The notes under the pieces: model-generated
What the model saw: the letters and a program-made list of their open reading frames with translations, nothing else
What the model was told of the DNA's origin: nothing
Database searches by the model: none
Translations under genes and position numbers: made by a program
DNA from: Psammoneis japonica
Taxonomy: Eukaryota
Assembly (NCBI GenBank): GCA_008632985.1
Contig: QPGO01000009.1
Location: 558,001 to 622,000, forward strand
Direction of reading: 5' to 3'
DNA length: 64,000 nucleotides
In this document: one piece after another, positions 1-57,142 of the stretch
Numbering within the stretch: the first letter of the stretch is position 1
Layout of the letters: each line of letters starts with the position of its first letter

Positions 1-844
1 TGTTCTGCACAAAGTACGAAGCATGAAAAGGTTAGTGTCGAGGTAACAGCGAGTACTGTATGCCAAAACATGGACTGTACTTTGCCGGTATAACAAAACT
101 AAGGTAGAGGTAAATTCTTTTCACATTTTGGTGGTTAGCATTAGAGACGAATGAAGCTTCGGATCTAGGAGATCAAAGGTTTCTATAGAAAAGTATGAGA
201 TGTCAGATGTCAACCGCACGGTGTGTCACATAAGGAAAATAAAAGCACACGTTTCTCGGTGTTCGCCCTCTCCTTATGGTCGTACCGTTCTTGGTAGAAG
301 TATCTTGAACCCAATCGTCGTTGACATCCATGGCTCCACAGCTGTGTCGATTAATGCTTTTTCCTCTTCCTTATCTGCATGTCTAGCGATCTTGCTTTCA
401 TCCCATGCACCTTCCCGCGTCTCACAATAGGGCATCTCTGGTTTGGTTTCTGATGACCAACCCACCAATATGTTCTAGCATTATCACACCATGGCGATCC
501 TTCTAGCATAATCATGGTAGGTCCAAGCACGCGTGTTAGCGACTCAACAACCGTTACCTTTGGCTAGTAATCCTTGTCTGCTTGTATCTGGAACATTTTG
601 ACTACCCTTACCAAGTTGGGCAGCAAATACATATCCTCAGTGCGGAGGTAACCAGCAAAGCTAAGAGCTTTATCTTTCAGTCGGCCATCTGCTGTTCCAC
701 CACGGACGCCAGGAAAGTCGAGAGGTGTACTATTTTCCCTTTCTTGGTTTTTGTTCTCCTTCATCGTGTACCGGTACGAAGTTTGACTTTCTCAGGAATT
801 CTTCTCTCCTACGGTGAGCTTACGCAGATTCGTTCGCTAGAGAG

Positions 845-2414
845 CTAAGCCAGATTTTGACGCCTGCGGTAGTTCCTTCCATGGGTCCCTCCTTTCATAT
901 CGACGGGTTCTAACAATAGCCTTGGCTCAAAAATCGTGGCCTGCTTCCATAGTGCGCCCAACAGCTGTCATGTATCCTACCCAAAGTGCGAGCTACATAA
1001 ATAGATGAGATGCCGTCATACTGCCTGACGGTTACGGTACCGGTAAGCCTCTTTACCATCTCGCTCGCTCAGTGGGCACTTTAATGTCTTAACCATTGAA
1101 TCAACTAGTACATCGCCTACGTGGACATATCACCACACGCGACATCCTCCTTACTAGTGACTTCAATGTTCTTCGTTCAACGGAGATCGATTCAGATTTC
1201 TTCGATACTCCTCGTTCCTTTGTCAAGTCGGTTCCCCTGAGATTCCTGATTCCTAGGTCAGAGAATCGGTCTGTACACCGCTCCTTCTCATCCCTTCGAA
1301 CAGAAAGTCTCTTTCGAGTTTCGAACCTTCGACCTCTTTGACCTCACCGCCAATCGGAACTTTCAGCTGCGAAGACCTCGTCTTGCATCCGCTGTGTCAA
1401 GTAGCTATGTAGGTATCTCACCATGTCATGTATCCTACCCAAAGTGCGAGCTACATAAATAGATGAGATGCCGTCATACTGCCTGACGGTTACGGTGCCG
1501 GTAAGCCTCTTTACCATCTCGCTCGCTCAGTGGGCACTTTAATGTCTTAACCATTGAATCAACTAGTGCATCGCCTACGTGGACATGTCACCACACGCGA
1601 CAAACAGCAGCGAATCATGGCTACACAGTGCAGCTTTGAAATCATCTGGCAGAGGAGCGGTGATGCTGGGCAACCCATCCAACTCCAAACAGAGACAGTG
1701 GAGTCCGAGTCGATTCAACCCCAGTCGTTGCCGCCACCATCGATTGACTTTGGAATCTCCATGAGCAGTGTCACCAATCACAGGTTGTCCCATTCTTTGT
1801 GCGTGGCGGCGAATCTGATGTGTCCGTCCTCCCAATGCGGGTTCCACCAACACTGCACAAGACGAACCAAAAGTTTCACCATCCTTGCCAGTTGCAGCAC
1901 AATGAGATGAAATGACAGCAAACTTCGTCTTGGCTTCCTTTTCGATCCCATGAATGTTGAGTGGTGCATCAACGACGCAGAACGCTTCATCGTGACGCGA
2001 CCACCAATCGCCCCGCAAGATTGCAATGTGTTGTTTTCTCCCTCTCTTCAAAGCCGCATGCAATTCTCCGCAGGTTTCGGAGTCAAAGGCAAACAGCATC
2101 GCCCCGGAAGTTCTATGATCCAAACGATGAACTGGACAGACCTTGCGTGACAATTGACGCTTCACCAAACCAACCAGTGTGGCTTGCTTCTTTCTTCGCG
2201 TCATGCTGTTGCAGTGGACAGTGATGCCACTGGGTTTGTTGATGCACGTCCAATCATTTTCGCATCGTAAAATTGGAATTCTGGGGCGACTTGTCTTGGG
2301 CGGGGATGTCATTGTCATTGACCAGCAGCTCGAGAAGCAGCACAGCAAAAACAAAAACAGCAGCATGATGAGATCGTTCATCATTCCGCGCTTTGATGCT
2401 CCACCAGGAGGCAC
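845..2414 (-). pseudogene. RluA-family RNA pseudouridine synthase, disrupted by a TRIM insertion and TpA-mutated
   Basis: Motifs NKPSG, PVHRLDHRTSG, GRTHQIRRH, IGDTAHG. Removing the TRIM and one TSD restores the frame to ...LLLGALWKQATIFEPRLLLEPVDMKGGTHGRNYRRRQNLA* (TAG 845-847). The start is GTG here but ATG in the paralogue at 16638-16640. No Tyr right of the TRIM. Confidence 0.9.
966..1602 (-). mobile_element. TRIM (terminal-repeat retrotransposon in miniature), 637 bp
   Basis: Two 179-bp direct repeats 966-1144 and 1424-1602 (TG...CA), 6-bp TSD AACAGC (960-965, 1603-1608). Minus-strand PBS-like TGGTGAGATACCT abuts 1423; PPT TAAGGAGGA abuts 1145; 279-bp non-coding interior. Confidence 0.93.
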
Positions 2415-2629
2415 ACTTTTTCAGACCGAGCGAGAGGGATGTCGTCGTTTTCATGCCTCACACCCTCTACGAAGTTTCAACCTACACTGGGGCCTTGCAT
2501 CCGTGTGACTTCGATGAGGAGTGAGGCATGTACCGGCACCAACATGTTGTGTGTTTTGTTGGTTGTTACTTTACGGTGGGTTGCAGGTTGTGTGAGTGCA
2601 TGCATGGGAGGTGCACGCGCTCTTCTCAA

Positions 2630-5600
2630 TTGGTTCCTCCTTTGTGGTAGGAACTCTGGACACGAAGTGAGGAGGTGTGGAACCCGGGCTGGTTTGGATT
2701 GCCATGCGCGCGAGCATCAAATTTTAGAGCTTTGATCTTTACTTGCCACCAATCATTTTTTAAAAAATTCGCACGCTTAAATGATGGGTTCGCAATTGAT
2801 TAATGTGCGACGCAATTCTACATTGATGTTTTAACATTATGTCAAAAAATGGCGATTTAATTCTTGCATTCGTGTGTGGACATGTCATAAGAAGAGACGT
2901 GGGTTTCCCCTTTTTGATAATTCTGGTGTGATCGTTCTATGGCAGATGATAAGAGAACTGTCCTAACGTTGTGCATCACTGGTTGCTGAGTGTGTCTGTC
3001 ATTGCAATAATGTGCTGACATCGATTTGTTAGATTAGACCCTTTGTTTTCTATCGGTTGTTGCCGGGCACGCTTGCAAGCCCGCGTGTGAAGCCTGGAAC
3101 ATTTTCCAAAAGGTAGAAATAATTCCCACATGCAGCATCAAAATGTTCCATTTGTCAATTGGACTGCAAAATGTCATCACACTGTTCGTTGGTGAAGCAC
3201 GCGACACTTCTTCCTTCCATCAACTGGAGCAGGGCGTTGCACCCGTCCGGCAGTCTGCACAGACTTAAATCTCTCTTCAGCGGTTGCCGAAGATGCAGAC
3301 CATTTCTGGTCTTGACCCTGGAGAGCATGACACATGCCCAGTTTTGTGCACAGCTCCAGCTAGGTACAAACACATTGTCGACACCGCTTCCTTGAAGCTT
3401 GTGTCCTGTGGTTGCATTGTTTGTCATGAATGGCAATTGGGTTGCTTTCAGTCCGAGCGTGTGTTTCTCTTTTTCCTCAGCTGTCATCTGTTGGGTTGGG
3501 TCCTTTGAACAGGCTTTGAAAGTGGAAGACTTGGGCTTGAGCGAAAAGGTGGGTGGATCGATGCTTTTGTTGCCATGCTTGAGTTCTACATGATCCACCT
3601 GGGATGCCTGGCATTAGAATTGCGATGTTTGTGTTACATGTCAGCTTGGATCTGCTGATTGCAGGGCACGATGCATTCTGGAAAGCATCGCATTTTCTCC
3701 TCTTGGGGACAATTTCTTTGACGCATCTATGACGGAATGAGCCATCCCAAGAGAACCACTTAATTTTTGCNNNNNNNNNNNNNNNNNNNNNNNNNNNNNN
3801 NNNNNNNNNNNNNNNNNNNNNNNNNNNNNNNNNNNNNNNNNNNNNNNNNNNNNNNNNNNNNNNNNNNNNNNNNNNNNNNNNNNNNNNNNNNNNNNNNNNN
3901 NNNNNNNNNNNNNNNNNNNNNNNNNNNNNNNNNNNNNNNNNNNNNNNNNNNNNNNNNNNNNNNNNNNNNNNNNNNNNNNNNNNNNNNNNNNNNNNNNNNN
4001 NNNNNNNNNNNNNNNNNNNNNNNNNNNNNNNNNNNNNNNNNNNNNNNNNNNNNNNNNNNNNNNNNNNNNNNNNNNNNNNNNNNNNNNNNNNNNNNNNNNN
4101 NNNNNNNNNNNNNNNNNNNNNNNNNNNNNNNNNNNNNNNNNNNNNNNNNNNNNNNNNNNNNNNNNNNNNNNNNNNNNNNNNNNNNNNNNNNNNNNNNNNN
4201 NNNNNNNNNNNNNNNNNNNNNNNNNNNNNNNNNNNNNNNNNNNNNNNNNNNNNNNNNNNNNNNNNNNNNNNNNNNNNNNNNNNNNTCTGTGATGGACAGT
4301 CGAGTGTAATCCTCGCCACATGTCAACCCAGTTGTGCAGATCCGACTGGTCAGTTTGGATGGTGTTCTTTTACCATCACGCCTGAAATCTCTGTTGTCAG
4401 AATGCAGATTGTCTCTTGCTGTGTTTGTGTCTTCAAACCATGCCTGAATGTGACCGTGTGCCGAGAGTCTACCTTGTTCTTCCACTGCAGCTATGAAAGC
4501 GGAGGGTCTCCCCATGTAGAATTCAAAATCTTCTCTGGGTGAATTCCTTTTTAAGTCCCATCCTGTCACTTCTTCTATGACGATTTCCAATGACATTTCG
4601 AGTGCAAAAGCGGTGACACCCGGGTGCTCCACACGAAGCTCGTTTCTTGCCCCCAGCCTTTTCGGTCAATTCTTCATCCAACATTTCTGTCACATCTCTG
4701 CCTTTGTCGATGAGCATGTCCGCATAAATTTGAACTAAAAAGGAATTGGCATCATAGGGGCTTTGTCGTTGAAAATGCTCCAGGTTGTCCAAAGTGGTGT
4801 TGGCAGGTTTCAGCATTTCTTCTCATTTTTTTTGCTGCTTCATTTGCATGTGGAATAGATGCCAACACCACATCCACTGCACTTAAGAAACGATGTCCCA
4901 ATGCGCAATTCCTGCGTTCACCAGTCTGTCTGTCATGTGTGGCACGGTCGACGTCGTCTTGTGTCAGTTCATTTGAGAATTGTCTGGCTTGATTTTTGTC
5001 TCTTACTTTCCATCCAGCACTGTGCACCATTCGTTGCTTCACAGTCAGATTGCACAGGGTCAGAACAAAGAGTTGCTTGTGGAAATGGGGCTGAGAAATG
5101 CGGGCCAAGTGATCTGCGCAATGTGCCAGATTTGCACAGTCGGCGAGACTCCCGTCTTCTTTCATTCTTGTTTCATCAATGCCGCCATGCCCACAAGGAA
5201 ATTGCAGCAAGCAAGCATTTGCCAGGTTGTTGTCCTTAAAGTCACTGACTGATTCTTTCAAAAGATCAGCTTTGAATTCAATGTCAAAACCGCTTGCAGC
5301 TGCATCGTGCACCAAGTCTTTGAAGCTGTCTAAATTACGTTGTCCACCAGTTGTTGAAGAAACGGTGCCATCGGGGAAACAAACACTGCAGGACTCCGTG
5401 GTTTCAATGTTTGCATTTTCGCTTTCGTCCAAACTGCCATTGTCCACTAAAACTGGATTCTGCAAATCACTTCGCACTTCCTCTAGATCGATGTCTTGAT
5501 TCATCCAATTCTCGTGGTGATGGACAAGCCATTCTAGTGCTCTCATTACATGGTGAGTCCTGATTTTGTTCTTTTGTCTGGCCATTCGCCTTTGCTCTGG

Positions 5601-7099
5601 TGTCATTTTGCCGGACACCAACACAACCACATTTTGATGAAGGTTCAACACGTCAAAGTGCACAATGGTGCGGGCGATGCTCTTTACGCTCATCTTGTAA
5701 TGGGAAAGACTGCCTTGCAGTTTCTTCTGTTTGCCACCGACAAAACTGAAGCAGCAGCCACATGTTTTCACAGGTGTCAACAAAGCCAGTTCCACTTCGG
5801 TGAGACACGATAATTCAGGTGGTGGTGTTCCAAAACAGTGGTCATTTGCCATTGCGCACAGAGGCATGGAAGCAGTGCAGAGACTTCTTTTACAAGGCCT
5901 GCAACACGTGAATCCTTCAGACCTTCTGTTGTCGTTCGGAACAATGTGTCAAGCTCTTGGCGAAAGTGACAGGTCGGAAATCCATCGGCAATCCCGTGGA
6001 ATGTGGTCGTCATCGATGCGACAACAATCGTGCAGGTCTTCCGACACTTGGTTCCATTCAGATGGAGTTGACAGGTGTCTGGCTTCATTCAATCCATTGA
6101 CAGAAAGTCGAGCAGTCTGAGACGGTTTTGACAATCTGTCACACACCAAACAAACCCAAGGGATGCACTCGTTTCCATTCCTGCAACAAAGCTTCTCAAA
6201 ACATCTGTTTATGTTGTCTCGGTGCCTGGTGTTGCCATCATCCACAAGACAGCTTGCAACGGCAGGCTCACACTGCGCAAAGATGAGTTGAACCAACAAC
6301 GCAGCAATGGGTGCACGCCAGATGACACGACGACCCATGAGACTTGCAAAATGAGAACAATCGGAGTAAAGTCAATGTGATCAACAGATGGTGGACAATC
6401 CGACCTGCAACTGGTGTTCCCAGTCACTGCAGGGTCCACTTCCAGTGTTTTCTGGACTCAGCAGACGAGTGTGTGCAACAAATCTTCAGTGTGTCAAGAG
6501 CACAATGAACAACAATGAATGCGAAATGACAAATCTGCAGCCGGTGTTTCCCGGTCTCTGCAGACTCTGCGACCAGTGTGTTCTGGTCCCCACAGACATT
6601 GTCTCAGCTGCAACTGGCGATGCTTTGTGTCGAGATGGCTGGAGAGTCTTCCTTTGCAAAAGTTCAGATCTCATGAAAAATGAGGGTTGAAGCAAACTTC
6701 CGTGCATGATTGACGGACCCGACACGTTGTAGATCGCTCGTCTCGACCCACTTGACACGTCATCGTTCGCTCGTGCGTTCCACATTGGGGTGTGCTGCCA
6801 ACAGCAGTGGCATCACACCAGTGAGGTCATGAACGTCAGCGGGAACGATGTCTTGTGGAAGTTCAATGTGCGATGATGTGTCTCGCAGTTGAAGTCGGTT
6901 CCACCCACTACGACCATGCGACGTTTGCACGACTGTGACACCTCATGTCTCGATCTACTGCCAAGTGTAACAGATGTGTGCATGCCAGACACATGTTCTT
7001 GCTGACGTCGTACAGCATGTTTCAACGAATTCTACTGTACAAATCCTACTCATTATGTAACCGTGGCTGGATGTGAGGAACTGCTGGACAGCCATTGTA
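2630..7099 (-). mobile_element. Helitron-like rolling-circle transposon (degenerate Rep-helicase)
   Basis: HUH Rep motif VEEQGRLSAHGHIQAW (about 4440-4490); PIF1-helicase C-terminal motifs TGHKLQG and WACVMLSRVKTRNGL (3155-3598); N-terminal PPELSCLTEVELALL. Ends inferred from the empty site CTCAATTCAACGG at about 11952 and 16819; no TSD. Confidence 0.85.
3771..4285. other. assembly gap (N run) inside the Helitron
   Basis: 515 Ns. Confidence 1.
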
Positions 7100-7699
7100 T
7101 TCAACGGTCGACGGACGTTCCTACCATTTTTCATTTCTTTTCCTCAGGAATTAAAAAAAAAATCCCTAGTGAGATTCCGCCGCCGAAATCAAAATTTCAA
7201 AAAATGAAAAAAACCTTGAACACATAACATCAACGAGAGGAGTCTAGTCACCGAGACGCGAATAAAAAGCGAATCCGCAATCATCATCCACGTCAACCAA
7301 TCGCGGGAACAAAATACCCATTATTTTATTCTTTTCGAGTCCAAGAACGAGGCGCTTTTTCATTCTACAAAGTAAATCGATTGTCCAATCAGTTGAGACA
7401 TACATTTAGTACCTTATTAGTTTTCAAAAAGGTGAGTGATGGGAATAGTAGCGATTGCAAGAGTCACCTGCCTTGAGTCGGACGAAAACTGAGTTGTTCG
7501 TGAGCGGTCGGAAGAAAGCAATAGTGGTTCTATAGCGTCAAGTGAGATGTTGCTCTGCACCGTCCATGGAAGAACCAAAAGTCTACATTGTGAACACAGG
7601 CATCGCTCGGATTTGTTGGTTGCTTAGCCTAATTCTTCGTTTGGTTGCTTTTTTGTGCTCCTTGCTCCCAGAGATTTTTTTCCAGTAACAGCTAAGAAT

Positions 7700-8845
7700 A
7701 TGACTACTTCAAAGTTTCGGATTGTTCAAGTATGGATTGCTATGATTTTCTTCCTCGGGGCGATTCACTGGCATTTTCTGGATAACGTTAATGACCTTGT
7801 TGCGCAGGCGGAACAGCATGAGAAAGAAGAATCAAAAGAAATTTGTGCCGGTTGGGATACAAACATGGATGCATGGTGGACTCACCATCCCGACTACGAA
7901 GTCTCACACGAGAACGAGACTGGCTATTGCTTCTCACCCATAACGGACAAGAGAAAGGCTAAATTCTTTCGCCATCTTTACCAAGTTCAATACAAAAGCA
8001 ATTGCTCCAATGCGCGAACAATAAATATGGCGTCGAATGGCTGGGGTGCAACCTTCAATATGGTCGACGAGGGCCTTCTCTACGCATACGAAAATAACCA
8101 GCCAATCGCAGTATATCCAACCAAGGGACGGTGGCACTATGCCGCTAAAAAGGATGCTAGCAAGCCTGTTTGTAAACGCAAGGACATGTCGTGCTACTTT
8201 CTCAATGTAACATCCTGTCAAGCTAATCCAAACAAGATTGAAAACCTAAAACCCAAGGGGGACTTCACGGTGAATTCACACCATGGCCGTTGGAGTTACG
8301 AATATGCCACACGTGGTCAAACTTGGTTGAGACGAGAAGTGTACAAAATGACGGCCTCGACAAAGCTTGTTACGCCGTGCACTGTCATGCACGTTCGTCG
8401 GACAGATGTTCTGCTAGAGGGGAAAGAAAGAGGGAAGCACCGTAAATACCATGATATCACGGAGTATGTCCAGGGGGCTGGGAAGAACCTGACGGATAAT
8501 ATCTTTCTTCTCACGGACGATCAAGATGCCATAGAGGAAGCGACAACGGAGTTTCCTCAGTACAACTGGATGTTTCTGAATCGACCTCGAAACAGGGGAA
8601 TAGAGGGCGGTTTTGAAGGACATATCCCCTCCGACGATCCAAAGTTTGAGGTCGTAGTCATTCTCGCCACTCTTCTGTTAGTGAAGCATTGTGAGACGTT
8701 TGTATACGCAAGAAGCAGGTTCGCTACACAAATTCGAAGTAGCATGCCTGGTGCCAAGATGATCTATCTCGACGAGGGCAAGCAAATTTATTTCGATAAC
8801 TCTGTAAATGAGACTGCGATCCAGACAAAGTCACATCCTGGGTAG
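7700..8845 (+). CDS. GT23/FUT8-like alpha-fucosyltransferase, copy 1
   Basis: N-terminal TM anchor, MHVRRTD (FUT8 motif I VHVRRTD) and IFLLTDD; intact ORF, first ATG at 7700. Confidence 0.8.
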   Translation: MTTSKFRIVQVWIAMIFFLGAIHWHFLDNVNDLVAQAEQHEKEESKEICAGWDTNMDAWWTHHPDYEVSHENETGYCFSPITDKRKAKFFRHLYQVQYKSNCSNARTINMASNGWGATFNMVDEGLLYAYENNQPIAVYPTKGRWHYAAKKDASKPVCKRKDMSCYFLNVTSCQANPNKIENLKPKGDFTVNSHHGRWSYEYATRGQTWLRREVYKMTASTKLVTPCTVMHVRRTDVLLEGKERGKHRKYHDITEYVQGAGKNLTDNIFLLTDDQDAIEEATTEFPQYNWMFLNRPRNRGIEGGFEGHIPSDDPKFEVVVILATLLLVKHCETFVYARSRFATQIRSSMPGAKMIYLDEGKQIYFDNSVNETAIQTKSHPG

Positions 8846-9449
8846 TACTCGGTAACAGTATTCGGGTGCATTTCCCACACTACTCTAGAGTGAATTTAGA
8901 TAGATTTACCATACGGTACAATGTACTTCTCTAGAGAATTGCTCATGAAAGAATTGGACCTCATCGTTTGGAATCGTCTGGTCTCGCCACTGCGGACTCT
9001 TTTTTGAAAATTTGACAAGACAGTACAAATGCAGCAGATTGGACCTAGCAAACAGAAAGGCAAGTACAATTCAAAACACCCGATGAACCAAACTGACTGC
9101 GACTGCAGATGAGAGGGCTGCAAGCCAACGAAGACAGGGCATTGAACCAGATCGTGTCCGCATCATCCTCAGTCAGAGCTGACAGAGCCGCGGGAACAAG
9201 GAACCGGCCATCGCTAACATGGGTCCCCACCATCGACAACTTCCACATCGGAGACAGAGTGAGGATCATCAACACACTGTGATGCCAGCATTCGGCAGAA
9301 AGTCAGCAACCCAACAGGACTGCGTTGGTGCCGTGACCAAGACAACTGCTCATCTGAGAGCCCCAAACAATGTGGGGTTCCTGTCAGACTAAAAATGTCA
9401 GAGCCAAGACTGGACACAGCACCCAGAACCACTGACCGCACACCAGAGA

Positions 9450-10560
9450 AACTTTGTCCAATCAGAGCCATGGGGGAAGGAAGCAACGAAAGCAAGAGGG
9501 TGGCAAATTCACGTGCGATGCATCAGCCAACAAGGACACATTCATGAAGACGACTGGGATCATCACCGAGTCCATTGGATGGGAGTGTGATGATGCTGGA
9601 GAGTTCTGCACTGGGGCGGTTGCCCTCAGACTGAATGGTCTCATTCTTGTCCTGCTTGACCCTGACCCAGTGGCCGGAACAGCTGTCCTGAAAAATGGAA
9701 AAACTTGTGCACAAGACCCATCAGCCAAAGCCTTTGCATTGACACTGAGACAGTGTTCCCAGGCACTGCGCAACTGTGTGGAGGCCCATGAAGATTGGGT
9801 GGCTGCCAACAAGAACTCCAACATTGTCGAACTGCTTCAGATCATCTGAGCCTTCATGATGCAGCATCAGACAAGGAGACATCCTGTGCATGCCATCATT
9901 GAGGCAGAGTTGGAGGTGCTGCTGTTCAAGCAAGGATGGCTCATGTTTGCCAGCAACTGCTTTGAGTGATTCAAAGATTCCGCAGGGATGGCGGAACATC
10001 TTGGGGGCAACATTGGATGCCAGCAGTTCCAAGCAGTGGCAAGGCTTGCTTTGATGGTGGTTGATGCCAATGTTCCCACCAACAAGGAGTGGGTCCAAGC
10101 CAGGCAGAAGTGCATGACAAACACCTGGGCATGCTCTTCCTGCCAAACAGCAACAAGTGCAGGTTTGGCAACCTCATCTGTGACCTGAGAAATTGAGAAA
10201 ACAAGTGCACCAGGGGGACAGACAAGCACCCCGTCACACTCAATGCAGCACACAATTTCCTGGTCAACTGCCAAGCACCACATCACCCTGGGACACACAG
10301 CACAGACCAACATGAGATGGCTTTCCTTGCTGATGGTGATTGCCCTGGGCAAGGACGTCACCAGGACGTGGGGGTGGACACATGCCCGGGGACAAAGCCC
10401 AGGATGTGGATGAGGTTGAGGAGGCCACAGTGACCCACTGTGCCGCATGACTGCTGACACCAACAACCCGCCAGCGGATCAGGATGCAGCAGAGCCTGAG
10501 GTGAAGGACAATCAAGGTGCAATCAAAGTGGGATGCAGTTCTCACCAGACAGTTCCTGTG
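9450..10560 (+). mobile_element. Ty1/copia (CoDi-type) gag remnant
   Basis: ESIGWECDDAGEFCTG, QCSQALRNCVEAHEDW..SNIVELLQII and ENKCTRGTDKHPVTLNAAHNFLVNC resemble diatom Copia gag motifs with Y>C/H; frameshifts and stops. Confidence 0.65.
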
Positions 10561-11444
10561 ACCCCGAGAAGTTTGTTGATGGGCACTCATGCACGCTCCA
10601 GCAGAGCCAGCCTGAAACCTTCTGTTGGATGCCCATTTCAATCATTTGCTGCCACAACATGATTCGTGGCTCTTCACAACAGGTGCAAATGAAATGCTTT
10701 GCAACAGTCTGGGAAGCACATGCCATGCCCATCTTGCAGTTGATGCCATTGCAGCTGTGACAGCCAAAACAATGCTCTGTTTGTCCTGAAACCTTCTGTC
10801 GGGCACCCATTTTGATTGTTTGACACCACAACAATGTGCGCGGCTCTTGCTTTGATTGATGTGCACATGATGCTTTGCAATGGTCTTCAGCAGGAAGCAC
10901 ATGCCATGCACAAATGTGCCATTTGTGGGCTGCAGCACAGGTTGACGAGCACATGGAAAGTGGTGACATGATTGCCCAAACAAGGGACACAGATCCAAAA
11001 TCAATGGATTCTCTTCCACCCTCCTTTGCATTGCTCCAAAGGCAAGAAATCATTGCCACAATGATGATCAGTGTGCCAAAGTTGTTTGGAAAAGTGCCTT
11101 GAGTGACTCTGCTTGCAGTGCTGCACCTTCCACTTGGCTTCCAAATCTTTGGCAATCTTTGCCATGTTGCCAGTGGGATGGCAGGTGAAATGCAGATGCG
11201 CAAAGTGACCAAGAAAAATGAGATGTTGTAAGACGGGTTTCCAAGAAAAGGTCAAGCAGCTCTTCCATGATTTTCCCATTTCAGCATTCTTGTGTAGACT
11301 CCACAGGGTGCTAAACACATTGACAATAAGATCTGATGCAAGTCAACTCAAGAACCAAACAATGCTGATGCTGCCTCAATGGCTTGGCATCCACCTTGAC
11401 CCAAATTCGGCATCATGGGATGGATGGCATGGCCCATGAGCAAA

Positions 11445-11775
11445 TCAAAGGCAAACAGCATGGCCCCAGAAGTTCCATGATCCAAACATTGCACTAAATG
11501 GACTTTGCACGACAATTGGTGCTTCATCAAACCAACCAGCATGGCTTGCATTTTGTGCTTCGAGTTGTGTTGTTGCAGTGCTCGACAGCCACGCCGCTGC
11601 TTGGTTTGTTGACACACGTCCAATCATTTTCACAATGTAAAATTGGAACTCTGGGGCAAGTTGTCTTGGACAGAAGCATCATTGACCAGCAGCATGAGAA
11701 GCAGCACGGCAAAAATTGCAAAAGCAGCATGATGAAATCGTTCATCATTCCGGGCTTTGATGCTCTCAGGCATGC
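11445..11775 (-). pseudogene. 5' fragment of the RluA pseudouridine synthase, copy 2
   Basis: Aligns to 2082-2414 (CENDWTCVNKPS, VQCLDHGTSGAMLFAFD); truncated and frameshifted. Confidence 0.85.
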
Positions 11776-12553
11776 TTTTTCAGACCAAGAGGAATGTCAT
11801 GGTTTTCATGCCTCACACCCTCTGTGAAGTTTCAACCTACACTGGGGCCTAATGTCCGTGTGACTTCGATGAGTGAGGCCCTTGCACATCCAAAACATGA
11901 TGTTTATGACACCGGCACAAATGTTGTGTGAGTGTGAGGTGCACGCATCTTCTCAATTCAACGGTCGACGTTCCTGCCATTTTTCCTTTATTTTCCTCAG
12001 GAATGTATACAGTAATATGAATATACAATATTAGTACTCGTGGAACAAAAAATGCAGAAATCAAAATTTCAAAAAATGAAAAAAACCGTCAACGCATCAA
12101 CGACACGACACGAATGAAAAGCGAATCAACCTCTATGTATGATACTGTAGCAACCAATCGCGGTAACAAAATACCCATTATTTTATTCTTTTCGAGTCCA
12201 AGAACGAGGCGCTTTCTCATTCTACAAAGTAAATCGATTGTCCAATCAGCTCAGAGTTACATTTAGTACCTTATAGGTTTTCAAAAAGGTGAGTGATGGG
12301 AATAGCAGCGATTGCAAGAGTCACCTGTCTTGAATCGGACGAAAACTGCGTTGTTCGTGAGCGGTCGGAAGAAAGCAATAGTGTCATAGCGTCAAGTGAG
12401 ATGGTTGCTCTGCACCGTCCGTGGAAGAACCAAAAGTCTACCTTGTGAACACAGGCATCGCTCGGGTTTGTTGGTTGCTTAGCCTAATTCTTCGTTTGGT
12501 TGCTTTTTGTGCTCCTTGCTCCCAGAGAATTTTTTTCAGCAACCGCTAAGAAT

Positions 12554-13708
12554 ATGACTGCTTCAAAGTTTCGGATTGTTCAAGTATGGATTGCTATGAT
12601 TTTCTTCCTCGGGGCGATTCACTGGCATTTTCTGGATAATAATGGATTCGTTAATGACCTTGTTGCGCAGGCGGAACAGCATGAGAAAGAAGAATCAAAA
12701 GAAATTTGTGCCGGTTGGGATACAAACATGGATGCATGGTGGACTCACCATCCCGACTACGAAGTCTCACACGAGAACGAGACTGGCTATTGCTTCTCAC
12801 TCATAACGGACAAGAGAAAGGCTGAATTCTTTCGCCATCTTTACCAAGTTCAATACAAAAGCAATTGCTCCAATGCGCGAACAGTAAAAATGGAGTCGAA
12901 CGGCTGGGGTGCAACCTTCAATATGGTCGACGAGGGCCTTCTCTACGCATACGAAAATAACCAGCCAATCGCAGTATATCCAACCAAGGGACGATGGCAC
13001 TATGCTGCCAAAAAGGATGCTAGCAAGCCTGTTTGTAAACGCAAGGACATGTCGTGCTACTTTCTCAATGTAACATCCTGTCAAGCTAATCCAAACAAGA
13101 TTGAAAACCTAAAACCCAAGGGGGACTTTACGGTGAATTCACACCATGGCCGTTGGAGTTACGAATATGCCACACGTGGTCAAACTTGGTTGAGACGAGA
13201 AGTGTACAAAATGACGGCCTCGACAAAGCTTGTTACGCCGTGCACTGTCATGCACGTTCGTCGGACAGATGTTCTGCTAGAGGGGAAAGAAAGAGGGAAG
13301 CACCGTAAATACCATGATATCACGGAGTATGTCCAGGGGGCTGGGAAGAACCTGACGGATAATATCTTTCTTCTCACGGACGATCAAAATGCCATAGAGG
13401 AAGCGACAACGGAGTTTCCTCAGTACAACTGGATGTTTCTGAATCGACCTCGAAACAGGGGAATAGAGGGCGGTTTTGAAGGACATATTCCCTCCGACGA
13501 TCCAAAGTTTGAGGTCGTAGTCATTCTCGCCACTCTTCTGTTAGTGAAGCATTGTGAGACGTTTGTATACGCAAGAAGCAGGTTCGCTACACAAATTCGA
13601 AGTAGCATGCCTGGTGCCAAGATGATCTATCTCGACGAGGGCAAGCAAATTTATTTCGATAACTCTGTAAATGAGACTGCGATCCAGACAAAGTCACATC
13701 CTGGGTAG
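12554..13708 (+). CDS. GT23/FUT8-like alpha-fucosyltransferase, copy 2
   Basis: Near-identical to copy 1, with a 9-bp in-frame insertion (NGF); intact. Confidence 0.8.
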   Translation: MTASKFRIVQVWIAMIFFLGAIHWHFLDNNGFVNDLVAQAEQHEKEESKEICAGWDTNMDAWWTHHPDYEVSHENETGYCFSLITDKRKAEFFRHLYQVQYKSNCSNARTVKMESNGWGATFNMVDEGLLYAYENNQPIAVYPTKGRWHYAAKKDASKPVCKRKDMSCYFLNVTSCQANPNKIENLKPKGDFTVNSHHGRWSYEYATRGQTWLRREVYKMTASTKLVTPCTVMHVRRTDVLLEGKERGKHRKYHDITEYVQGAGKNLTDNIFLLTDDQNAIEEATTEFPQYNWMFLNRPRNRGIEGGFEGHIPSDDPKFEVVVILATLLLVKHCETFVYARSRFATQIRSSMPGAKMIYLDEGKQIYFDNSVNETAIQTKSHPG

Positions 13709-14306
13709 TACTCGGTAACAGTATTCGGGTGCATTTCCCACACTACTCTAGAGTGAATTTAGATAGATTTACCATACAATGTACTTCTCTAGAGAATTGC
13801 TCATGAAAGAATTGGACCTCATCGTTCGGAATCGTCTGGTCTCGCCACTGCGGACTCTTTTTGAAAATTTGACAAGACAGTACAAATGCAGCAGATTGGA
13901 CCTAGCAAACAGAAAGGCAAGTACAATTCAAAACACCCGATGAACCAAACTGACTGCGACTGCAGATGAGAGGGCTGCAAGCCAACGAAGACAGGGCATT
14001 GAACCAGATCGTGTCCGCATCATCCTCAGTCAGAGCTGACAGAGCCGCGGGAACAAGGAACCGGCCATCGCTAACATGGGTCCCCACCATCGACAACTTC
14101 CACATCGGAGACAGAGTGAGGATCATCAACACACTGTGATGCCAGCATTCGGCAGAAAGTCAGCAACCCAACAGGACTGCGTTGGTGCCGTGACCAAGAC
14201 AACTGCTCACCTGAGAGCCCCAAACAATGTGGGGTTCCTGTCAGACTAAAAATGTCAGAGCCAAGACTGGACACAGCACCCAGAACCACTGACCGCACAC
14301 CAGAGA

Positions 14307-15415
14307 AACTTTGTCCAATCAGAGCCATGGGGGAAGGAAGCAACGAAAGCAAGAGGGTGGCAAATTCACATGCGATGCATCAGCCAACAAGGACACATTC
14401 ATGAAGATGACTGGGATCATCACCGAGTCCATTGGATGGGAGTGTGATGATGCTGGAGAGTTCTGCACTGGGGCGGTTGCCCTCAGACTGAATGGTCTCA
14501 TTCTTGTCCTGCTTGACCCTGACCCAGTGGCCGGAACAGCTGTCCTGAAAAATGGAAACTTGTGCACAAGACCCATCAGCCAAAGCCTTTGCATTGACAC
14601 TGAGACAGTGTTCCCAGGCACTGCGCAACTGTGTGGAGGCCCATGAAGATTGGGTGGCTGCCAACGAGAACTCCAACATTGTCGAACTGCTTCAGATCAT
14701 CTGAGCCTGCATGATGCAGCATCAGACAAGGAGACATCCTGTGCATGCCATCATTGAGGCAGAGTTGGAGGTGCTGCTGTTCAAGCAAGGATGGCTCATG
14801 TCTGCCAGCAACTGCTTTGAGTGATTCAAAGATTCCGCAGGGATGGCGGAACATCTTGGGGGCAACATTGGATGCCAGCAGTTCCAAGCAGTGGCAAGGC
14901 TTGCTTTGATGGTGGTTGATGCCAATGTTCCCACCAACAAGGAGTGGGTCCAAGCCAGGCAGAAGTGCATGACAAACACCTGGGCATGCTCTTCCTGCCA
15001 AACAGCAACAAGTGCAGGTTTGGCAACCTCATCTGTGACCTGAGAAATTGAGAAAACAAGTGCACCAGGGGGACAGACAAGCATCCCGTCACACTCAATG
15101 CAGCACACAATTTCCTGGTCAACTGCCAAGCACCACATCACCCTGGGACACACAGCACAGACCAACATGAGATGGCTTTCCTTGCTGATGGTGATTGCCC
15201 TGGGCAAGGACGTCACCAGGACATGGGGGTGGACACATGCCCGGGGACAAAGCCCAGGATGTGGGTGAGGTTGAGGAGGCCACAGTGACCCACTGTGCCG
15301 CATGACTGCTGACACCAACAACCTGCCAGCGGATCAGGATGCAGCAGAGCCTGAGGTGAAGGACAATCAAGGTGCAATCAAGGTGGGACGCAGTTCTCAC
15401 CAGACAGTTCCTGTG
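14307..15415 (+). mobile_element. Ty1/copia gag remnant, duplicated copy
   Basis: Near-identical to 9450-10560. Confidence 0.65.
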
Positions 15416-16306
15416 ACCCCGAGAAGTTTGTTGATGGGCACTCATGCACGCTCCAGCAGAGCCAGCCTGAAACCTTCTGTTGGATGCCCATTTCAATCAT
15501 TTGCTGCCACAACATGATTCATGGCTCTTCACAACAGGTGCAAATGAAATGCTTTGCAACAGTCTGGGAAGCACATGCCATGCCCATCTTGCAGTTGATG
15601 CCATTGCAGCTGTGACAGCCAAAACAATGCTCTGTTTGTCCTGAAACCTTCTGTCGGGCACCCATTTTGATTGTTTGACACCACAACAATGTGCGCGGCT
15701 CTTGCTTTGATTGATGTGCACATGATGCTTTGCAATGGTCTTCAGCAGGAAGCACATGCCATGCACAAATGTGCCATTTGTGGGCTGCAGCACAGGTTGA
15801 CGAGCACATGGAAAGTGGTGACATGATTGCCCAAACAAGGGACACAGATCCAAAATCAATGGATTCTCTTCCACCCTCCTTTGCATTGCTCCAAAGGCAA
15901 GAAATCATTGCCACAATGATGATCAGTGTGCCAAAGTTGTTTGGAAAAGTGCCTTGAGTGACTCTGCTTGCAGTGCTGCACCTTCCACTTGGCTTCCAAA
16001 TCTTTGGCAATCTTTGCCATGTTGCCAGTGGGATGGCAGGTGAGATGCAGATGCGCAAAGTGACCAAGAAAAATGAGATGTTGTAAGACGGGTTTCCAAG
16101 AAAAGGTCAAGCAGCTCTTCCATGATTTTCCCATTTCAGCATTCTTGTGTAGACTCCACAGGGTGCTAAACACATTGACAATGAGATCTGATGCAAGTCA
16201 ACTCAAGAACCAAACAATGCTGACTGGACATGCATCCTCAATGGCTTGGCATCCACCTTGACCCAAATTCGGCATCATGGGATGGATGGCATGGCCCATG
16301 AGCAAA

Positions 16307-16640
16307 TCAAAGGCAAACAGCATGGCCCCAGAAGTTCCATGATCCAAACATTGCACTGAATGGACTTTGCACAACAATTGGTGCTTCATCAAACCAACCA
16401 GCATGGCTTGCATTTTGTGCTTCGAGCTGTGTTGTTGCAGTGCTCGACAGCCACGCCGCTGCTTGGTTTGTTGACACACGTCCAATCATTTTCACAATGT
16501 AAAATTGGAACTCTGGGGCAAGTTGTCTTGGACAGAAGCATCATTGACCAGCAGCATGAGAAGCAGCATGGCAAAAATTGCAAAAGCAGCATGATGAAAT
16601 CGTTCATCATTCCGGGCTTTGATGCTCTGCCAGGAGGCAT
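16307..16640 (-). pseudogene. 5' fragment of the RluA pseudouridine synthase, copy 3
   Basis: Aligns to 2082-2414; retains ATG at 16640. Confidence 0.85.
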
Positions 16641-17387
16641 GCTTTTTCAGACCGAGAGGAATGTCATGGTTTTCATGCCTCACACCCTCTGCGAAGTTTC
16701 AACCTACACTGGGGCCTAATGTCCGTGTGACTTCGATGAGTGAGGCCCTTGCACATCCAAAACATGATGTTTATGACACCGGCACAAATGTTGTGTGAGT
16801 GTGAGGTGCACGCATCTTCTCAATTCAACGGTCGACGTTCCTGCCATTTTTCCTTTATTTTCCTCAGGAATGTATACAGTAATATGAATATACAATATTA
16901 GTACTCGTGGAACCAAAAATGCAGAAATCAAAATTTCAAAAAATGAAAAAAACCGTCAACGGATCAACGACACGACACGAATGAAAAGCGAATCAGGTAA
17001 CAAAATACCCATTATTTTATTCTTTTCGAGTCCAAGAACGAGGCGCTTTCTCATTCTACGAAGTAAATCGATTGTCCAATCAGCTGAGAGTTACATTTAG
17101 TACCTTATAAGTTTTCAAAAAGGTGAGTGATGGGAATAGCAGCGATTGCAAGAGTCACCTGTCTTGCATCGGACGAAAACTGCGTTGTTCGTGAGCGGTC
17201 GGAAGAAAGCAATAGTGTTATAGCGTCAAGTGAGATGGTTGCTCTGCACCGTCCATGGAAGAACCAAAAGTCTACCTTGTGAACACAGGCATCGCTCGGG
17301 TTTGTTGGTTGCTTAGCCTAATTCTTCGTTTGGTTGCTTTTTGTGCTCCTTGCTCCCAGAGAATTTTTTTCAGCAACCGCTAAGAAT

Positions 17388-22649: not shown

Positions 22650-24060
22650 TTAAAGATTGGTCCAGCATGGCGCTGTGCCAATGGTGATGCCGACACCAGC
22701 TTCAATAAACCTGGCCTTCACCATGTGGAAAAGGCACCACTGGTGGGCAGCAGACTTGACTGCCCAAAGTTTAAGGGCTCGAGATTTGCTGACCTTGGTC
22801 TTTTGAGTGGGATCATTTTCAAACTGCAGGCTCTCCTCTGGCACCTTTCCATGAGTGTGCAAGTGCTTTGAAATGTCAGATGAGATGCACTTGATTCTTG
22901 CTGCACCCAGAAGCCCAGCACCAGAGCAGCTCTTGTCCTGTTCTTTCAGCTTGAACATTCCATTAGAGACAGTCTTGATGAAGTGACCCAAGTTCAGCAA
23001 TTGTTGCACAAGATGCTCCACAGTCAGGCCAATGATGTCAGGGCAGATGAAACCAATTGCTCCCCTGGTGTTGCCATCTGTGACAACTTCTTCATTGGCA
23101 AAATTGCCTCATCATCTGGTCCTCAAAACAATCCATTTTCATCACACTGGAGAAATCTTGCAGTGTTGATGTGTGTGCACTCTTCTGCCATGGCCAGACC
23201 ATGTGCCGGCACTTGTGTTTTGACAACATTTGCCCTTGTGCTCCAGCGAGCAAGCACTTGCAACCAATGGCTTGCAGTTTTTCTTCTCAAGCTGTTCTGT
23301 CATTTTGGCTGTGCATTTCTGACATGACATCTGATTGTTCCAGACAAAGATTGGCTTGCCAGTGACAAAACTGAACACCATCAAATGGTGTTGGTTGCCT
23401 TTTGTTTTGTGTGCATGCACTCTTGTGGCACTGTTGCCATCACTGGCAGTTGCACCCCTTGCAATTTGATGATTGTTGCCTTCCTTGTCAATGAATGTGA
23501 TGTTGCCCTTGTGCCCAGGGCTGTTTCTGCACTCTTGAACAAACTCCTTTTGACTGCACTCCAGCATTTCTGGAGACAACATCAAACTCTGGCCCTTTGC
23601 ACTGTTGTGCAGTTTGTGCAGAGTTGATCAACTGGGGTGCACAGTGCCACCTTTCTCTCCACAGAAATCAGTTTTTTTCTGAGGAAGAATTGCTGCTGCA
23701 ATGCCACCAACTTTACATCAGAAGAGGTGGGGCCCAGTCTTCCATCTTCATGCCTGGCAACTGGACAACAGCTGTGCTTTTCCAATGCAGTGCTGCAGCC
23801 CCTGCAATGGCAGAAGTTGAGAATGAGACTCCAAGTGATTTTGGTGCAACAAATTGTTTCCCATTTGGCACATCTGCAATGTTGCACATGTGTTGTGGCA
23901 CACACCATCCAATCAAAATTGCACTCAATGCCAATGAACTTGTGACCAACTCTCTGCCAGAATCAGCTTTGCTTTCACTGCCAGCTTCATCATTGCTGTT
24001 GGTGCATGCTGGATGGCAGGGGAGCATGCTTTTTGAGTTGGAATGACAAGGAGGGGGTGG
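22650..24060 (-). mobile_element. Mutator-like transposase remnant
   Basis: SDG..TRVHAH..GNQH..VFSFVTGKP..SCQKC, HKGKC, EEVVTDGNTRG and GHFIK across broken frames resemble Mutator-like DDE transposases. Confidence 0.5.
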
Positions 24061-24879
24061 CACTCATGCTGGAGTGGCAGCACCTGATTGGCTGCTGGAA
24101 ATCACTGGGGGGCACTGGTTGTCACTGGGGTGCTGGCAGTCACTCAACAAGCGGCAGCCACTTGAACAGCAATTGCCAGAGGGGCCAGAGTCACTGCTGG
24201 AACATTGGGAAGGGCATGAGACAATGAGGTGGCCTTGAGGCAGCATTCACTGGGGTGGTGGCAGTCACTGGAGTGGCAGTCACTTGGGTGGTGAGCACCG
24301 GTGGGGCATGGGCCACTGCTGGTGCAATGGAAGCACAGTGGGAACAGCATGATTTGACCACACACCTGCACCATGAGCGGCAGAGGAAGAGGTCTGGGGT
24401 GGAAGAGACCAAGGCTGAGGAGGTGGCCAAAGCAGAAGCAACTGGTGCATGAGTTGCATTGCCCACTTGCAGTCTCTGTTTGAAACTGCAACAGCGTGTT
24501 AAAGCGTCTCACAACTCATGGTGGAAAAGCAAGTGCCATTACACTTCAGCATGGGCAAAGGCATTTTGACCAAACAAGAATGACCACAACAAGCCGCAAT
24601 GCCAAACAGTCAAGTCAAAGGCAAGAACGGTTTGCACCACATGGAAGAATGGAGCAACGGCTGCTAGAGACTGCCAATGCCGCACCAGTGCAAAGACCAA
24701 GCTTTGGTGGAAACAAAAAGATGCATTGTGGCTTGTTTTGCCATTCTAAATTGTTGCAGGTTATTTGCAAAAAGATGACAAACACCATGTGATGCACTGG
24801 ATGTGTCTCATGTGCTCGCACAGCCCATGCTCCTTGAAACCCGTTGTTCCAAATGCTGTGTAAAGAGAACAATGTTCAT

Positions 24880-25400
24880 TTCTTCAAAATTTCTGGTTTG
24901 GTCTTGACAACAAGGCAATGGAGGTTTGGGTTGTTGCCAACCAGTGCCAACACTTTGGTCCACATAACATCAGGAACGGAGTCATGATGCAACAACAGCA
25001 AAATGCACTGCAACAGCTCACGGCCCCTTTCAACCTCAGATTGTAGCTCCTTGCCAATGCTGCCCCACGGTTCCCAAGGAACAACCTTCATGTTTCCCTT
25101 CACGCCATCCACCATGGCTGCCTTCCCACAACATGCTCAAAAGTTCGATTGTGATGTTTTTCACAAGCATCTGTCCAAGGGCTTTTGCACCACCATCTCC
25201 AATGTTGTTGCCACAAAGAAAAACAGCAACAATGGATGAGTTTTCATGCATGCACCTGGCCAATGCTTTGGCTCATTTCTGCCCAATGTGACAATCATCT
25301 AACACCAAATCTGTCAGAGTGCGATTTTTCAGTGACAGTTGTCCAATGTGTTCTGCACCTTGACAGCCAATTGCATTTCCCATGAGGCAGACATCACCAA
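24880..25400 (-). pseudogene. RNI-like leucine-rich-repeat gene remnant
   Basis: VFLCGNNIGDGGAKALGQMLVKNITIELL and LGNRGAALAR; frameshifted. Confidence 0.6.
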
Positions 25401-25967
25401 TTGCTCTGCTCTCTTCCAGTCCTGCACACAAAGACTTTACACCCTCAGGGCCAATGCTGGCATGATCAAGAATGAGTGTTTCCAGCAGAGAAAGAGAAGG
25501 GAGATGACTTTTGACAAACGCTTGATGCCATCATCCCCAATGTGAGTGCGAATCAAACAAATGGTCACCAGCTTTGGGAGATGCAAAAAGGCTTAAGGCA
25601 AATCATCCATTCCCTCTAAAACAATGTCACAATGAGACAAACTCAGAAATGTTAATTCACGAAAGGACGGAAGGACTCGGTGCAATTGCCTGCACTTTTT
25701 GGCATCGATTTCTTCCTGCCACAAGTCTGTTTTGCGAAGAACCTCACTTGGGTTTGTTTTGGCCAACACCACTTGCATGCTGTGCAAAGACCTCATTGCA
25801 ACACAGACAGGAGATTTGGCAGATGCTCAACAACCTTTTGCTTGAGAATGAAGTCATTGTTGACATGAAAATCACCCAGGTGTGTGAAACTGTGTGAGTG
25901 GACTGCTGGCACTGCAGCACCATCCGCAAAGTTTTAAAACATCAACACATGTTGGACATTGCTGTTT

Positions 25968-26540
25968 GACAGATGCCTGGGGTGCATGGTGGGTGGCAGA
26001 TGGCAGATGATGGCAGATGCTGGATGGTGGATGCAGGATGATGGCTTCAGGATGCTGGATGTTGGATGCTGGGTTGGATGGTGGATGGCAGATGGCAGAT
26101 GCTGCATGGTGGATGGCGGATGCTGGATGGTGGATGCTGGACAGTTGATGGTGGCAGATGGCAGGTGGCAGACAGTGGATGGTGGATGGCAGATGGCGGA
26201 TGGTGGGTGCAGGATGCCAGCTTCAGGATGCTGGATGGCGGATTGTGGGTGGTGGATGCTGGATGTCAGATGCTGGGCTGGATGGTGGGTGGTGGATGGT
26301 GGATGGCAGATGCTGCATGGTGTGTGGCAGATGCTGGATGGCAGGTGCTGGACAGTGGATGGTGGCTGATGGCAGAAGGTGGGTGGCAGATGGAGGATGC
26401 TGGGTGGTGGATGCAGAATGCTGGATGATGGCTGGATGACAGCTGGATGACAGCTGGATGGTGGTGGATGGCAGACGGCGGATGGCAGATGGTGGATGCA
26501 GGATGCTGGTTTCAGGAGGTGGATGGCAGATGGTGGATGG
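25968..26540. repeat. degenerate 7-bp tandem repeat (GGATGGT/AGATGGC/GGATGCT)
   Basis: About 570 bp of 7-nt periodic RGATGSY units. Confidence 0.85.
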
Positions 26541-26699
26541 GCTGACTCTTCATTCCCTTCATCAAGCAAGGGTTGTGGGGAGCACTGCAGCCAACATGGC
26601 TGTTCAAGAAACATGTGTCAACAGCAAGGCAGTTGCCAGACCCAGCAGCTGCAGCAAGCAAGATGCTGTGTGTTTCCTTGACACAGCTGTCCACTGGGT

Positions 26700-27230
26700 G
26701 AGCTTCACCTGCATGGTCTTCCCCACTTGTGGGAATGTGCGCATGACCCCAAGTTGCTTGTCCAAAGGGCACAGTGCATTTTCTCAAATTCTCCCAGTGT
26801 CTTGCCTGCTTTGACGAGATCTTCTTGGAGCTTCTGGATTGTCAGAGCATCCCAAAGCAAGGAGAGCGCATCATCTTTTTCTCCACACTTGGCCCAAACA
26901 AGGCAGCCAATCATGTTCAGCATGTTGCTGTCCTCCTTGGAGTCTTTGCCAAGTCACAGCTTCCATGGACTGTTCAAGGCCTTCTCAAAATATTGCAAAG
27001 CCTGCTCTGGCTCATCTTGATTGTGCAGCATGAATCCCATTCTGTGCAAAGCAGCTGCAATGTCCTTGTGGTTTGGTCCCAGGCTGATTGCAATCACCCA
27101 CATCATCTGCCAAGTCACAAAGCTCACACAAATCAGAACCCACCAGCTCATGATTTTCATGGTGTGCCAGCTTGTTGCGAATCTGCAGGGCTTCTTTCAA
27201 GGCAGTTTCCACTTTCTGACTGTGCCCTGC
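26700..27230 (-). pseudogene. TPR (kinesin-light-chain-like) gene remnant
   Basis: LGPNHKDIAAALHRMG..EQALQYFEKAL and MLNMIG..GEKDDALSLLWDALTIQK; frameshifted. Confidence 0.7.
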
Positions 27231-32764: not shown

Positions 32765-33085
32765 CAGATGGATTGGCACGCAGAGTTTTGCCCCAAAGTT
32801 GGCATGCCAAGTTTTGCAACAAAGTTTGTGTGCCAAGTTTTGCCCCAAAGCAGGCATGCCAAGTTTCACCCCAAAGTCAGCATGGCAAGTTTTGACCAAA
32901 CGTTTGCAAGCCAAGTTTTGTTCCAAAGTGAGTTTTGCCCCAAAGTTGATGTGCCAAGTTTCAACTTAAAGTCAGCATGCAAAGTTTCAACCCAAAGTTG
33001 GCATGCCGAGTTTTGACCCAAAGTTGGCACTTCAATTTTGCTGCAAAGTTGGCGCACCAAGTGTTGCCCCAAAGTTGGCACATCT
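32765..33085. repeat. satellite of about 21-22 bp units with palindromic core TTGGCATGCCAA
   Basis: Repeated CCCCAAAGTTGGCATGCCAAGTTTTG variants. Confidence 0.85.
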
Positions 33086-36000: not shown

Positions 36001-36089
36001 ACATGCACACCAAATGCACTGGCTGAGTCTGCATTTGCTGAGTGGGTTGGCCCAATTGTGGCATCTTTGCACTCTTGATTTGGGAAGCT

Positions 36090-47853: not shown

Positions 47854-47856
47854 TAA

Positions 47857-56970: not shown

Positions 56971-57142
56971 ACTGGAGAGAGGTAGTGTCTTCAGATCTAT
57001 CTTGTTAGGCCCGAGCGCAAGAGAGAGACGAGAGAGGCCGCGGCGCCGTTTGCTTTTACCGGATGCCGTCGTGGATAGACGGACGGACTTCAGAAGCACA
57101 CAGGCCCGCCCATTCACCAAATACTGTATCCATACTGTAATA

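Follow-up and report, generated by a model that had tools for sequence, protein, structure and literature searches.

The subject of this analysis is a window of 64,000 nucleotides from Psammoneis japonica (GCA_008632985.1, contig QPGO01000009.1, positions 558,001-622,000, forward strand), to which all positions below refer, and within it a 637-bp element which, judged from its sequence, appears to be a non-autonomous long terminal repeat (LTR) retrotransposon of the terminal-repeat retrotransposon in miniature (TRIM) type. The element interrupts a gene for a TruC-like pseudouridine synthase, and it borders on a block in which hardly any TA dinucleotides are left. Its two LTRs differ at exactly three positions, and each of these reads RTAY (R, purine; Y, pyrimidine) in the left LTR and RTGY in the right LTR, which faces the block. 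As a likely explanation we propose a TA-specific process, changing A to G, that acted at the edge of the block after the TRIM had inserted there.

Three differences between the terminal repeats

The two LTRs (966-1144 and 1424-1602) were compared base by base. Hereby, an earlier sequence-only reading of this DNA, according to which the repeats are distinguished by three TA>TG positions only, was reproduced in every detail. Its further statement that all differences are RTAY>RTGY changes in the right LTR, with CpG left untouched, likewise holds, since it applies to three of three sites and the 11 CpG of each LTR are all identical. The left LTR has 16 TA, the right LTR 13. Bases belonging to a TA step are hit in 3 of 64 cases as opposed to none of the 294 other LTR bases (Fisher p = 0.0055), and the chance that all three changes would fall on RTAY, given that five of the 16 TA sites are of this kind, is 0.018. 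That all three would fall into the block-facing LTR has a chance of 0.125. In addition, the three hit sites are the rightmost of the 13 RTAY sites of the element, for which the chance is 1/286 = 0.0035.

The three sites are located at an abrupt change in composition. With 6.0 TA per 100 bp, the left flank has a normal TA density, which extends across the element as far as 1576; in the 858 bp to the right of the element (1603-2460), there are three TA (0.35 per 100 bp). Among the RTAY sites, those at 1206, 1274, 1414, 1431 and 1477 are kept along with all five of the left LTR, those at 1496, 1567 and 1586 are lost, and the next ones follow at 2531, 3365 and 7011. With 1477 kept and 1496 lost, the edge for the RTAY class lies inside the element and is placed within 20 bp. 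Within the last 106 bp of the right LTR, the remaining six TA sites are all intact, whereas TA sites of all classes are lost in the adjoining flank, pointing to a light exposure of the LTR and a deep exposure of the flank. The deep block, from which all classes are missing, ends exactly at the insertion site (1603). The sequence-only reading had placed a domain boundary inside the element; this part stands for the RTAY class, but the boundary of the deep block coincides with the end of the element instead.

The context of the three changes recurs across the window, which consists of normal DNA alternating with sharply bounded TA-free blocks. Normal DNA contains 16-41 TA per 500 bp and the blocks 0-9, at a ratio of observed to expected (TG+CA) of 1.5-2.1 in the blocks and with RTAY-free runs of up to 14.4 kb. 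When TA sites are classed by both neighboring bases as RTAY, YTAY, RTAR or YTAR, the RTAY class makes up 313 of 1074 TA in normal DNA versus 3 of the 147 TA within blocks (Fisher p = 1.3e-16). The number of surviving sites per kb drops from 13.69 in normal DNA to 0.08 in blocks for RTAY, from 12.55 to 0.87 for YTAY, from 11.81 to 1.19 for RTAR and from 8.92 to 2.0 for YTAR, so that the order of sensitivity in the window is RTAY > RTAR/YTAY > YTAR. This rule fits an editor that prefers an A before a pyrimidine, because RTAY contains such an A on both strands, whereas YTAR has none. In the block beside the element, CpG is found at 0.5-0.9 of expectation and TA at 0.06-0.29, save for one 500-bp bin at 0.49. 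Here CpG is thus kept where TA is lost, which marks TA loss as a process apart from CpG decay. With regard to strand-coordinated patches, the asymmetry between TGY and RCA in 300-bp bins is modest and irregular, and we make no claim on it.

Origin, timing and direction of the changes

Evidence from sequencing reads was obtained from Logan contigs aligned to the window, which derive from three runs of one study and one sample, the only sample found to contain this stretch. Their depth figures are word depths and not copy numbers, and the contigs drop rare variants, some contigs having been filtered out. Inside the element word depth reaches 430-1380 compared to 48-58 on the flanks, so that the TRIM family is multi-copy, and other family copies sit in different flanks. 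Within the 64-kb window no further copy was found, and exact-pattern scans of public metagenome contigs for copies of the element gave no match. A multi-copy family gives room to the explanation that the three G's do not stem from change in place, but from an assembly or polishing error or from a gene-conversion tract copied from a mutated family member. This would fit the lack of any contig exactly equal to the right LTR, as well as the TG that one of three diverged family copies aligned over 1493-1602 carries at 1567-1568. However, the diverged copies also differ at 1540, 1549, 1565 and 1577, among other positions, and the window has none of these differences, so that a donor or source would need to differ at exactly three RTAY sites. 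Moreover, an artefact is not expected to choose the three RTAY sites nearest to the block, and a donor copy would itself record the same process. We consider an origin by artefact or conversion improbable, although it deserves to be taken seriously.

The timing of the insertion can be approached through contigs that cross the site. One contig (X1) joins 959 to 1603, thereby skipping 643 letters, with six letters fitting either side of the joint, and continues over 1603-2000 without any other letter. The X1 contig of the left flank ends precisely at 965, where a fork would cut it off, and an X2 contig extends two letters into the element. One sample thus seems to contain filled and empty sites alike, which makes the insertion recent and probably still polymorphic. 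Since the empty-site contig has the same junction of normal DNA on the left and TA-free DNA on the right, the deep block is older than the insertion. We conclude that the deep block, ending within the gene, came first, followed by the insertion and then by the three changes. The view of the sequence-only reading that the process is recent agrees with the absence of other LTR differences and with the empty-site junction in the same sample.

In the reverse order, the insertion would precede the block, with the element or a neighbor serving as barrier and the boundary being younger than the insertion. The deep block indeed ends exactly at the end of the element and in the middle of a gene, as it would at a barrier. 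Yet the empty-site contig connects the unmutated left flank to the TA-free right side with no other letters, so that the same boundary exists without the element. Over 1634-2000 only one contig is found and no unmutated second version, which is a weak point because contigs were filtered. A search of the left flank for a gene or barrier yielded small open reading frames (ORFs) only, with no Pfam match above noise and a 66-aa ORF without homologue. We regard this order of events as unlikely.

The direction of change cannot be read from the LTR pair alone, but outside evidence supports TA>TG. As the pair is symmetric, G might equally be the ancestral letter and the left LTR might have changed TG>TA three times, that is CpA>TpA on the other strand, which is the classic signature of repeat-induced point mutation (RIP). 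A 138-nt contig with a depth of 536 matches the left LTR over 1002-1144 without any other letter and with five nucleotides omitted at 1033; hence, the dominant form of the family carries A at both 1110 and 1129. A is thus the majority state of the family at two of the three sites, and at these two, where the family can be judged, its consensus does not carry the G that would have turned the direction around. This family form was read from contigs of one sample. At 1039 the contig as aligned agrees with A, though the site becomes uninformative if the gap is placed differently. Of the three diverged copies, two have CA at 1567-1568, where the element has TA on the left and TG on the right; CA is two steps away from TG and one step from TA. 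The TA at 1548-1549 appears as CA in one of them and as TG in two, and the TAs at 1503, 1540 and 1565, as well as that at 1577, are likewise changed to TG or CA. On this comparison, TA is the only state that lies one step from all states seen in the diverged copies.

Independent support for the direction comes from the flanking gene. When it is compared to its 60 best homologues, the only two columns with a conserved Tyr (60 of 60 homologues each) are those of Cys51 (TGC) and His129 (CAC). The TA>TG direction that had been proposed from the LTRs is therefore backed by the dominant family form, by the copies with CA and by two invariant Tyr codons that became TGC and CAC. The blocks, being TA-poor and rich in TG and CA, have the opposite composition of what RIP would leave behind, and the flanking gene has its relatives among diatom rather than fungal proteins. 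A RIP-like reversal is accordingly very unlikely. That three ordinary and unrelated transitions fell on TA sites by chance would suit the small count and a test of position over all TA sites (see below), but we give it next to no credence in view of the probabilities for TA, for RTAY and for the three block-nearest RTAY sites given above, of the lack of any difference at the 11 CpGs or elsewhere, and of the same context rule across the window.

We thus favor the explanation that a young TRIM on the minus strand would have inserted into the 3' coding part of the TruC-like gene, at a point that would be the exact end of an older TA-erased block made up of a Helitron-like element and the greater part of the gene. 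Once the TRIM had inserted, the same process would have acted again at the block edge. On either strand it would convert the A of 5'-TA-3' steps to G, and it would proceed fastest where a pyrimidine follows, a preference by which the palindromic RTAY sites go first. In this way it may have reached 106-125 bp into the new DNA and converted three RTAY sites on the plus strand, while the six TA sites of lower sensitivity in this part, like the remainder of the element, were spared. The three changes would accordingly have arisen in place after integration, the block may be a domain of chromatin-like nature that extends its edge into the inserted DNA, and the underlying chemistry is presumably the deamination of adenine.

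Several points weigh against this explanation. The case is built on only three sites, and a rank-sum test of position over all 16 TA sites gives only p = 0.055. The site 1039/1497 is located at the edge of the 5-nt indel, so that the dominant family form is informative for two sites only. Over 1493-1602 no contig equals the right LTR, an absence that is uninformative either way since the contigs drop rare variants; the differing letters listed for these contigs do not cover 1497 and 1587. The empty-site contig has 24 letters on its left side (30 including the shared six), which is below the 31-letter rule of the tool, and the three Logan runs represent one sample that is possibly the source of the assembly itself. 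Furthermore, the sharp step between a fully erased flank and an LTR that lost three of nine TA in its last 106 bp requires a history in two phases. Finally, the coincidence of the old edge with the insertion site goes unexplained, unless integration is aimed at block edges, as may be the case.

A more far-reaching scenario, in which the mutator is active in present-day cells, works on a domain edge that advances by about one nucleosome (106-125 bp) and meets TRIM integration guided to such edges, is conceivable, but we hold it to be rather doubtful. If it were true, the locus, where the insertion probably still segregates against an empty site, would supply a dated rate per generation; it would also constitute a natural assay for a putative 5'-TAY-3' adenine editor.

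The element, the interrupted gene and other blocks of the window

The features of the locus are compiled in Table 1.

Table 1. Features at the TRIM insertion and in the adjoining block (positions in the window; PBS, primer binding site).
Feature	Position	Strand	Remarks
TruC-like gene, C-terminal part	842-965	-	6 TA in 124 bp; one TAC Tyr kept
Target-site duplication AACAGC, left copy	960-965		the 959 to 1603 joint has 6 letters fitting either side
3' LTR (left in window)	966-1144	-	179 nt, TG..CA, unmutated; 16 TA including 5 RTAY
Internal region	1145-1423	-	279 nt, without coding capacity
Polypurine-tract-like run AAGGAGGA (minus strand)	1145-1152	-	directly before 3' LTR; sequence reading
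PBS-like stretch TGGTGAGATACC (minus strand)	1412-1423	-	directly after 5' LTR; sequence reading
5' LTR (right in window)	1424-1602	-	13 TA; outer 106-125 nt without its three RTAY sites
RTAY-free block	1478-7010		2 RTAY (2531, 3365) vs 16 in the 965-bp left flank
G for left-LTR A1039	1497	+	GTAC>GTGC (GGTACCG vs GGTGCCG); family evidence ambiguous, 5-nt indel
G for left-LTR A1110	1568	+	GTAC>GTGC (AGTACAT vs AGTGCAT); dominant family form has A
G for left-LTR A1129	1587	+	ATAT>ATGT (CATATCA vs CATGTCA); dominant family form has A
Target-site duplication AACAGC, right copy	1603-1608		identical to 960-965
TruC-like gene, N-terminal 270 codons	1603-2414	-	3 TA in 812 bp; 0 Tyr
Helitron-like insertion, block core	2528-7098		absent from paralogous tandem units; N run 3771-4285

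The direct repeats of the element are 98% identical, and their termini (TGTCATG...GCGACA) provide the TG..CA ends. On the minus strand, a PBS-like stretch beginning with TGG abuts the right LTR and a purine run of 8 nt abuts the left LTR, and neither feature is found in the plus orientation of the element. The element is thus assigned to the minus strand, whereby the mutated right LTR becomes the 5' LTR and the changes lie in its outer part; as regards the assignment to the TRIM type, the PBS-like stretch is a reading of the sequence. No tRNA gene was found in the window. The only ORF of at least 35 aa in the listed part 1-965 is a 49-aa frame across flank and LTR, and a search of the element against Rfam, with a retrozyme in mind, gave only a chance-level match for an RNA family or ribozyme.

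Other copies of the family were also encountered among the contigs. Three of the four listed X1 loose ends of such copies (30 letters each; at 965, 1605 and 1607) are without TA, which fits a location of other copies in or beside TA-free blocks. Two unique contigs from other copies have depths of 28.7 and 29.6 versus 48-58 at the flanks of the locus; this would fit further heterozygous insertions, with the reservation that depth is not copy number.

The right flank of the element encodes the TruC-like pseudouridine synthase on the minus strand (PF00849, E 1.8e-17), whose named relatives are diatom proteins with 40-53% identity. On the other side of the element, 37 codons and a stop are encoded at 845-958 (minus strand). 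When this peptide is aligned with the 60 best homologues, it matches their C-terminal ends at a median local score of 88 compared to 24 for shuffled sequence, with a median of 8 residues left at the homologue end. By this alignment the element sits inside the gene, in its 3' coding part. To the right of the element no Tyr is present in 270 codons, in comparison to one in the 37 codons on the left. As assembled, the frame of the gene continues for 9 codons into the LTR and ends at the TAG at 1575-1577, the TA of which is one of the surviving YTAY sites.

Further into the block, Helitron-like ORFs occupy 3155-5867 on the minus strand, with a match to DUF6570 (E 1.1e-16) and a match to Helitron_like_N below the cut-off; they are split by a 515-N assembly gap (3771-4285). 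A patch at 2461-3100 retains 24 TA, only one of them RTAY, between deeply erased neighbors, and looks lightly exposed in a similar manner as the outer part of the LTR.

The block is followed by tandem units of about 4.86 kb which are about 96% alike (7099-11955, 11956-16810 and 16811 to about 18765). Each unit contains a FUT8-like ORF in normal DNA and then a TA-free block. Beyond about 18765 the third unit has no homology, and a three-way alignment was used only for the remark on CpG made below. At the end of each TA-free block, partial copies of the TruC-like gene, consisting of its 5' part and upstream sequence (11445-11879 and 16307-16746), are 80-81% alike to 2083-2527. Several of their differences are TG versus CA at one dinucleotide, which suggests independent decay after duplication.

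The largest TA-free blocks of the window, at 22700-41200 and 44000-49100, are nearly devoid of CpG (observed/expected 0.0-0.3), and where tandem units differ from each other inside blocks, it is mostly by CpG versus TpG/CpA. The CpG-poor deep blocks together with these CpG-type differences indicate that two decay processes overlap in the older blocks. A smaller TA-poor stretch at 55000-56500 has 3-7 TA per 500 bp at near-normal CpG; a minus-strand ORF of 682 aa (55132-57180) overlaps it and may be another gene partly within a block. Short tandem arrays, most of them in TA-free blocks, are present at 25995-26437, 32758-33065, 36195-37424, 47886-48358 and 60743-61210, with periods of about 14, 26, 184-195, 26 and 156 bp, respectively.

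Comparison with known systems

The only TpA-specific hypermutation that we found in print is described in a 2026 preprint by Mettrop et al. on Bigelowiella natans, an unrelated alga in which viral insertions are affected. According to this preprint, integrated giant-virus and virophage DNA undergoes hypermutation restricted to TpA, the changes being A>G and T>C only and always at TpA to give TpG or CpA (bioRxiv 10.64898/2026.01.13.699255). The text gives a rate of about 1000 times background, followed in real time in mutation-accumulation lines and present in some lines only, and proposes an adenine deaminase (bioRxiv 10.64898/2026.01.13.699255). The two systems have in common the restriction of A>G/T>C changes to TpA, which applies here to three of three LTR differences and to both invariant Tyr codons, as well as bounded regions in a genome of otherwise normal composition. 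Foreign or mobile DNA may be the main target in the present case as well, to judge from the Helitron-like core and the affected TRIM copies, but here 270 codons of a host gene are included too. Compared to B. natans, the present case differs in lineage, the flanking gene having diatom relatives, and in its targets, which comprise a family of retrotransposons, a Helitron-like element and the larger part of a host gene instead of viral DNA. While the process in B. natans is seen in mutation-accumulation lines, here it is deduced from sequence comparison. The flank rule RTAY > RTAR/YTAY > YTAR seen here was not found in the consulted parts of the preprint, from which the words 'diatom' and 'retrotransposon' are also absent (bioRxiv 10.64898/2026.01.13.699255). 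In the literature searched (full text) there was no report of TpA hypermutation in diatoms.

The process resembles RIP inasmuch as a hypermutation by transitions decays mobile DNA, leaks into nearby genes and creates compositional blocks. RIP occurs in ascomycete fungi, is dinucleotide-specific and triggered by duplication, and changes C to T at CpA, thus making TpA. Its direction is therefore opposite to that of the process described here, which destroys TpA. Nor is duplication by itself enough to bring on the present process. The FUT8-like genes of the tandem units, which are about 96% alike over the whole unit and 98-99% in the listed 300-nt stretches, keep a normal TA content, so that near-identical duplicated genes are spared and the DNA between them is hit, and single-copy parts of the TruC-like gene are erased. 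In addition, the host of RIP is fungal and the present host is not a fungus. A reading of the locus as RIP was rejected on the block composition, the changes of invariant Tyr and the family contigs.

A second parallel is the deamination of 5-methylcytosine, by which CpG is lost to TG or CA on either strand in silenced DNA. Shared with this decay is the loss of a palindromic dinucleotide to TG/CA, and the deeper blocks of the window are also CpG-poor (0.0-0.3). CpG decay is, however, not what separates the two LTRs, as none of the 11 LTR CpGs is changed.

TRIM elements, known from plants and other eukaryotes, have short LTRs and a short non-coding interior and occur in many copies. The present element shares with them 179-nt LTRs with TG..CA ends, a 279-nt interior, PBS-like and polypurine features, a target-site duplication and many copies, and differs in its diatom-like host. 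TRIM-type elements of diatoms were not found in the literature searched, as judged by titles among the matches listed; one apparent hit proved to be a false match.

Compared to these systems, the locus adds an early stage, in which only RTAY has been converted and which thus bears out the context rule without recourse to the heavily decayed blocks. It furthermore adds a time stamp, since the changes postdate an insertion with a probable empty-site allele; changes younger than a probably polymorphic insertion suggest that the process was active very recently. In addition, it provides an edge that is placed within 20 bp and a host gene that is destroyed up to this edge. Should the process serve to defend the cell against mobile DNA, the locus would illustrate its collateral cost. 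It also represents a place at which the rate, the chromatin state and enzyme candidates can be tested.

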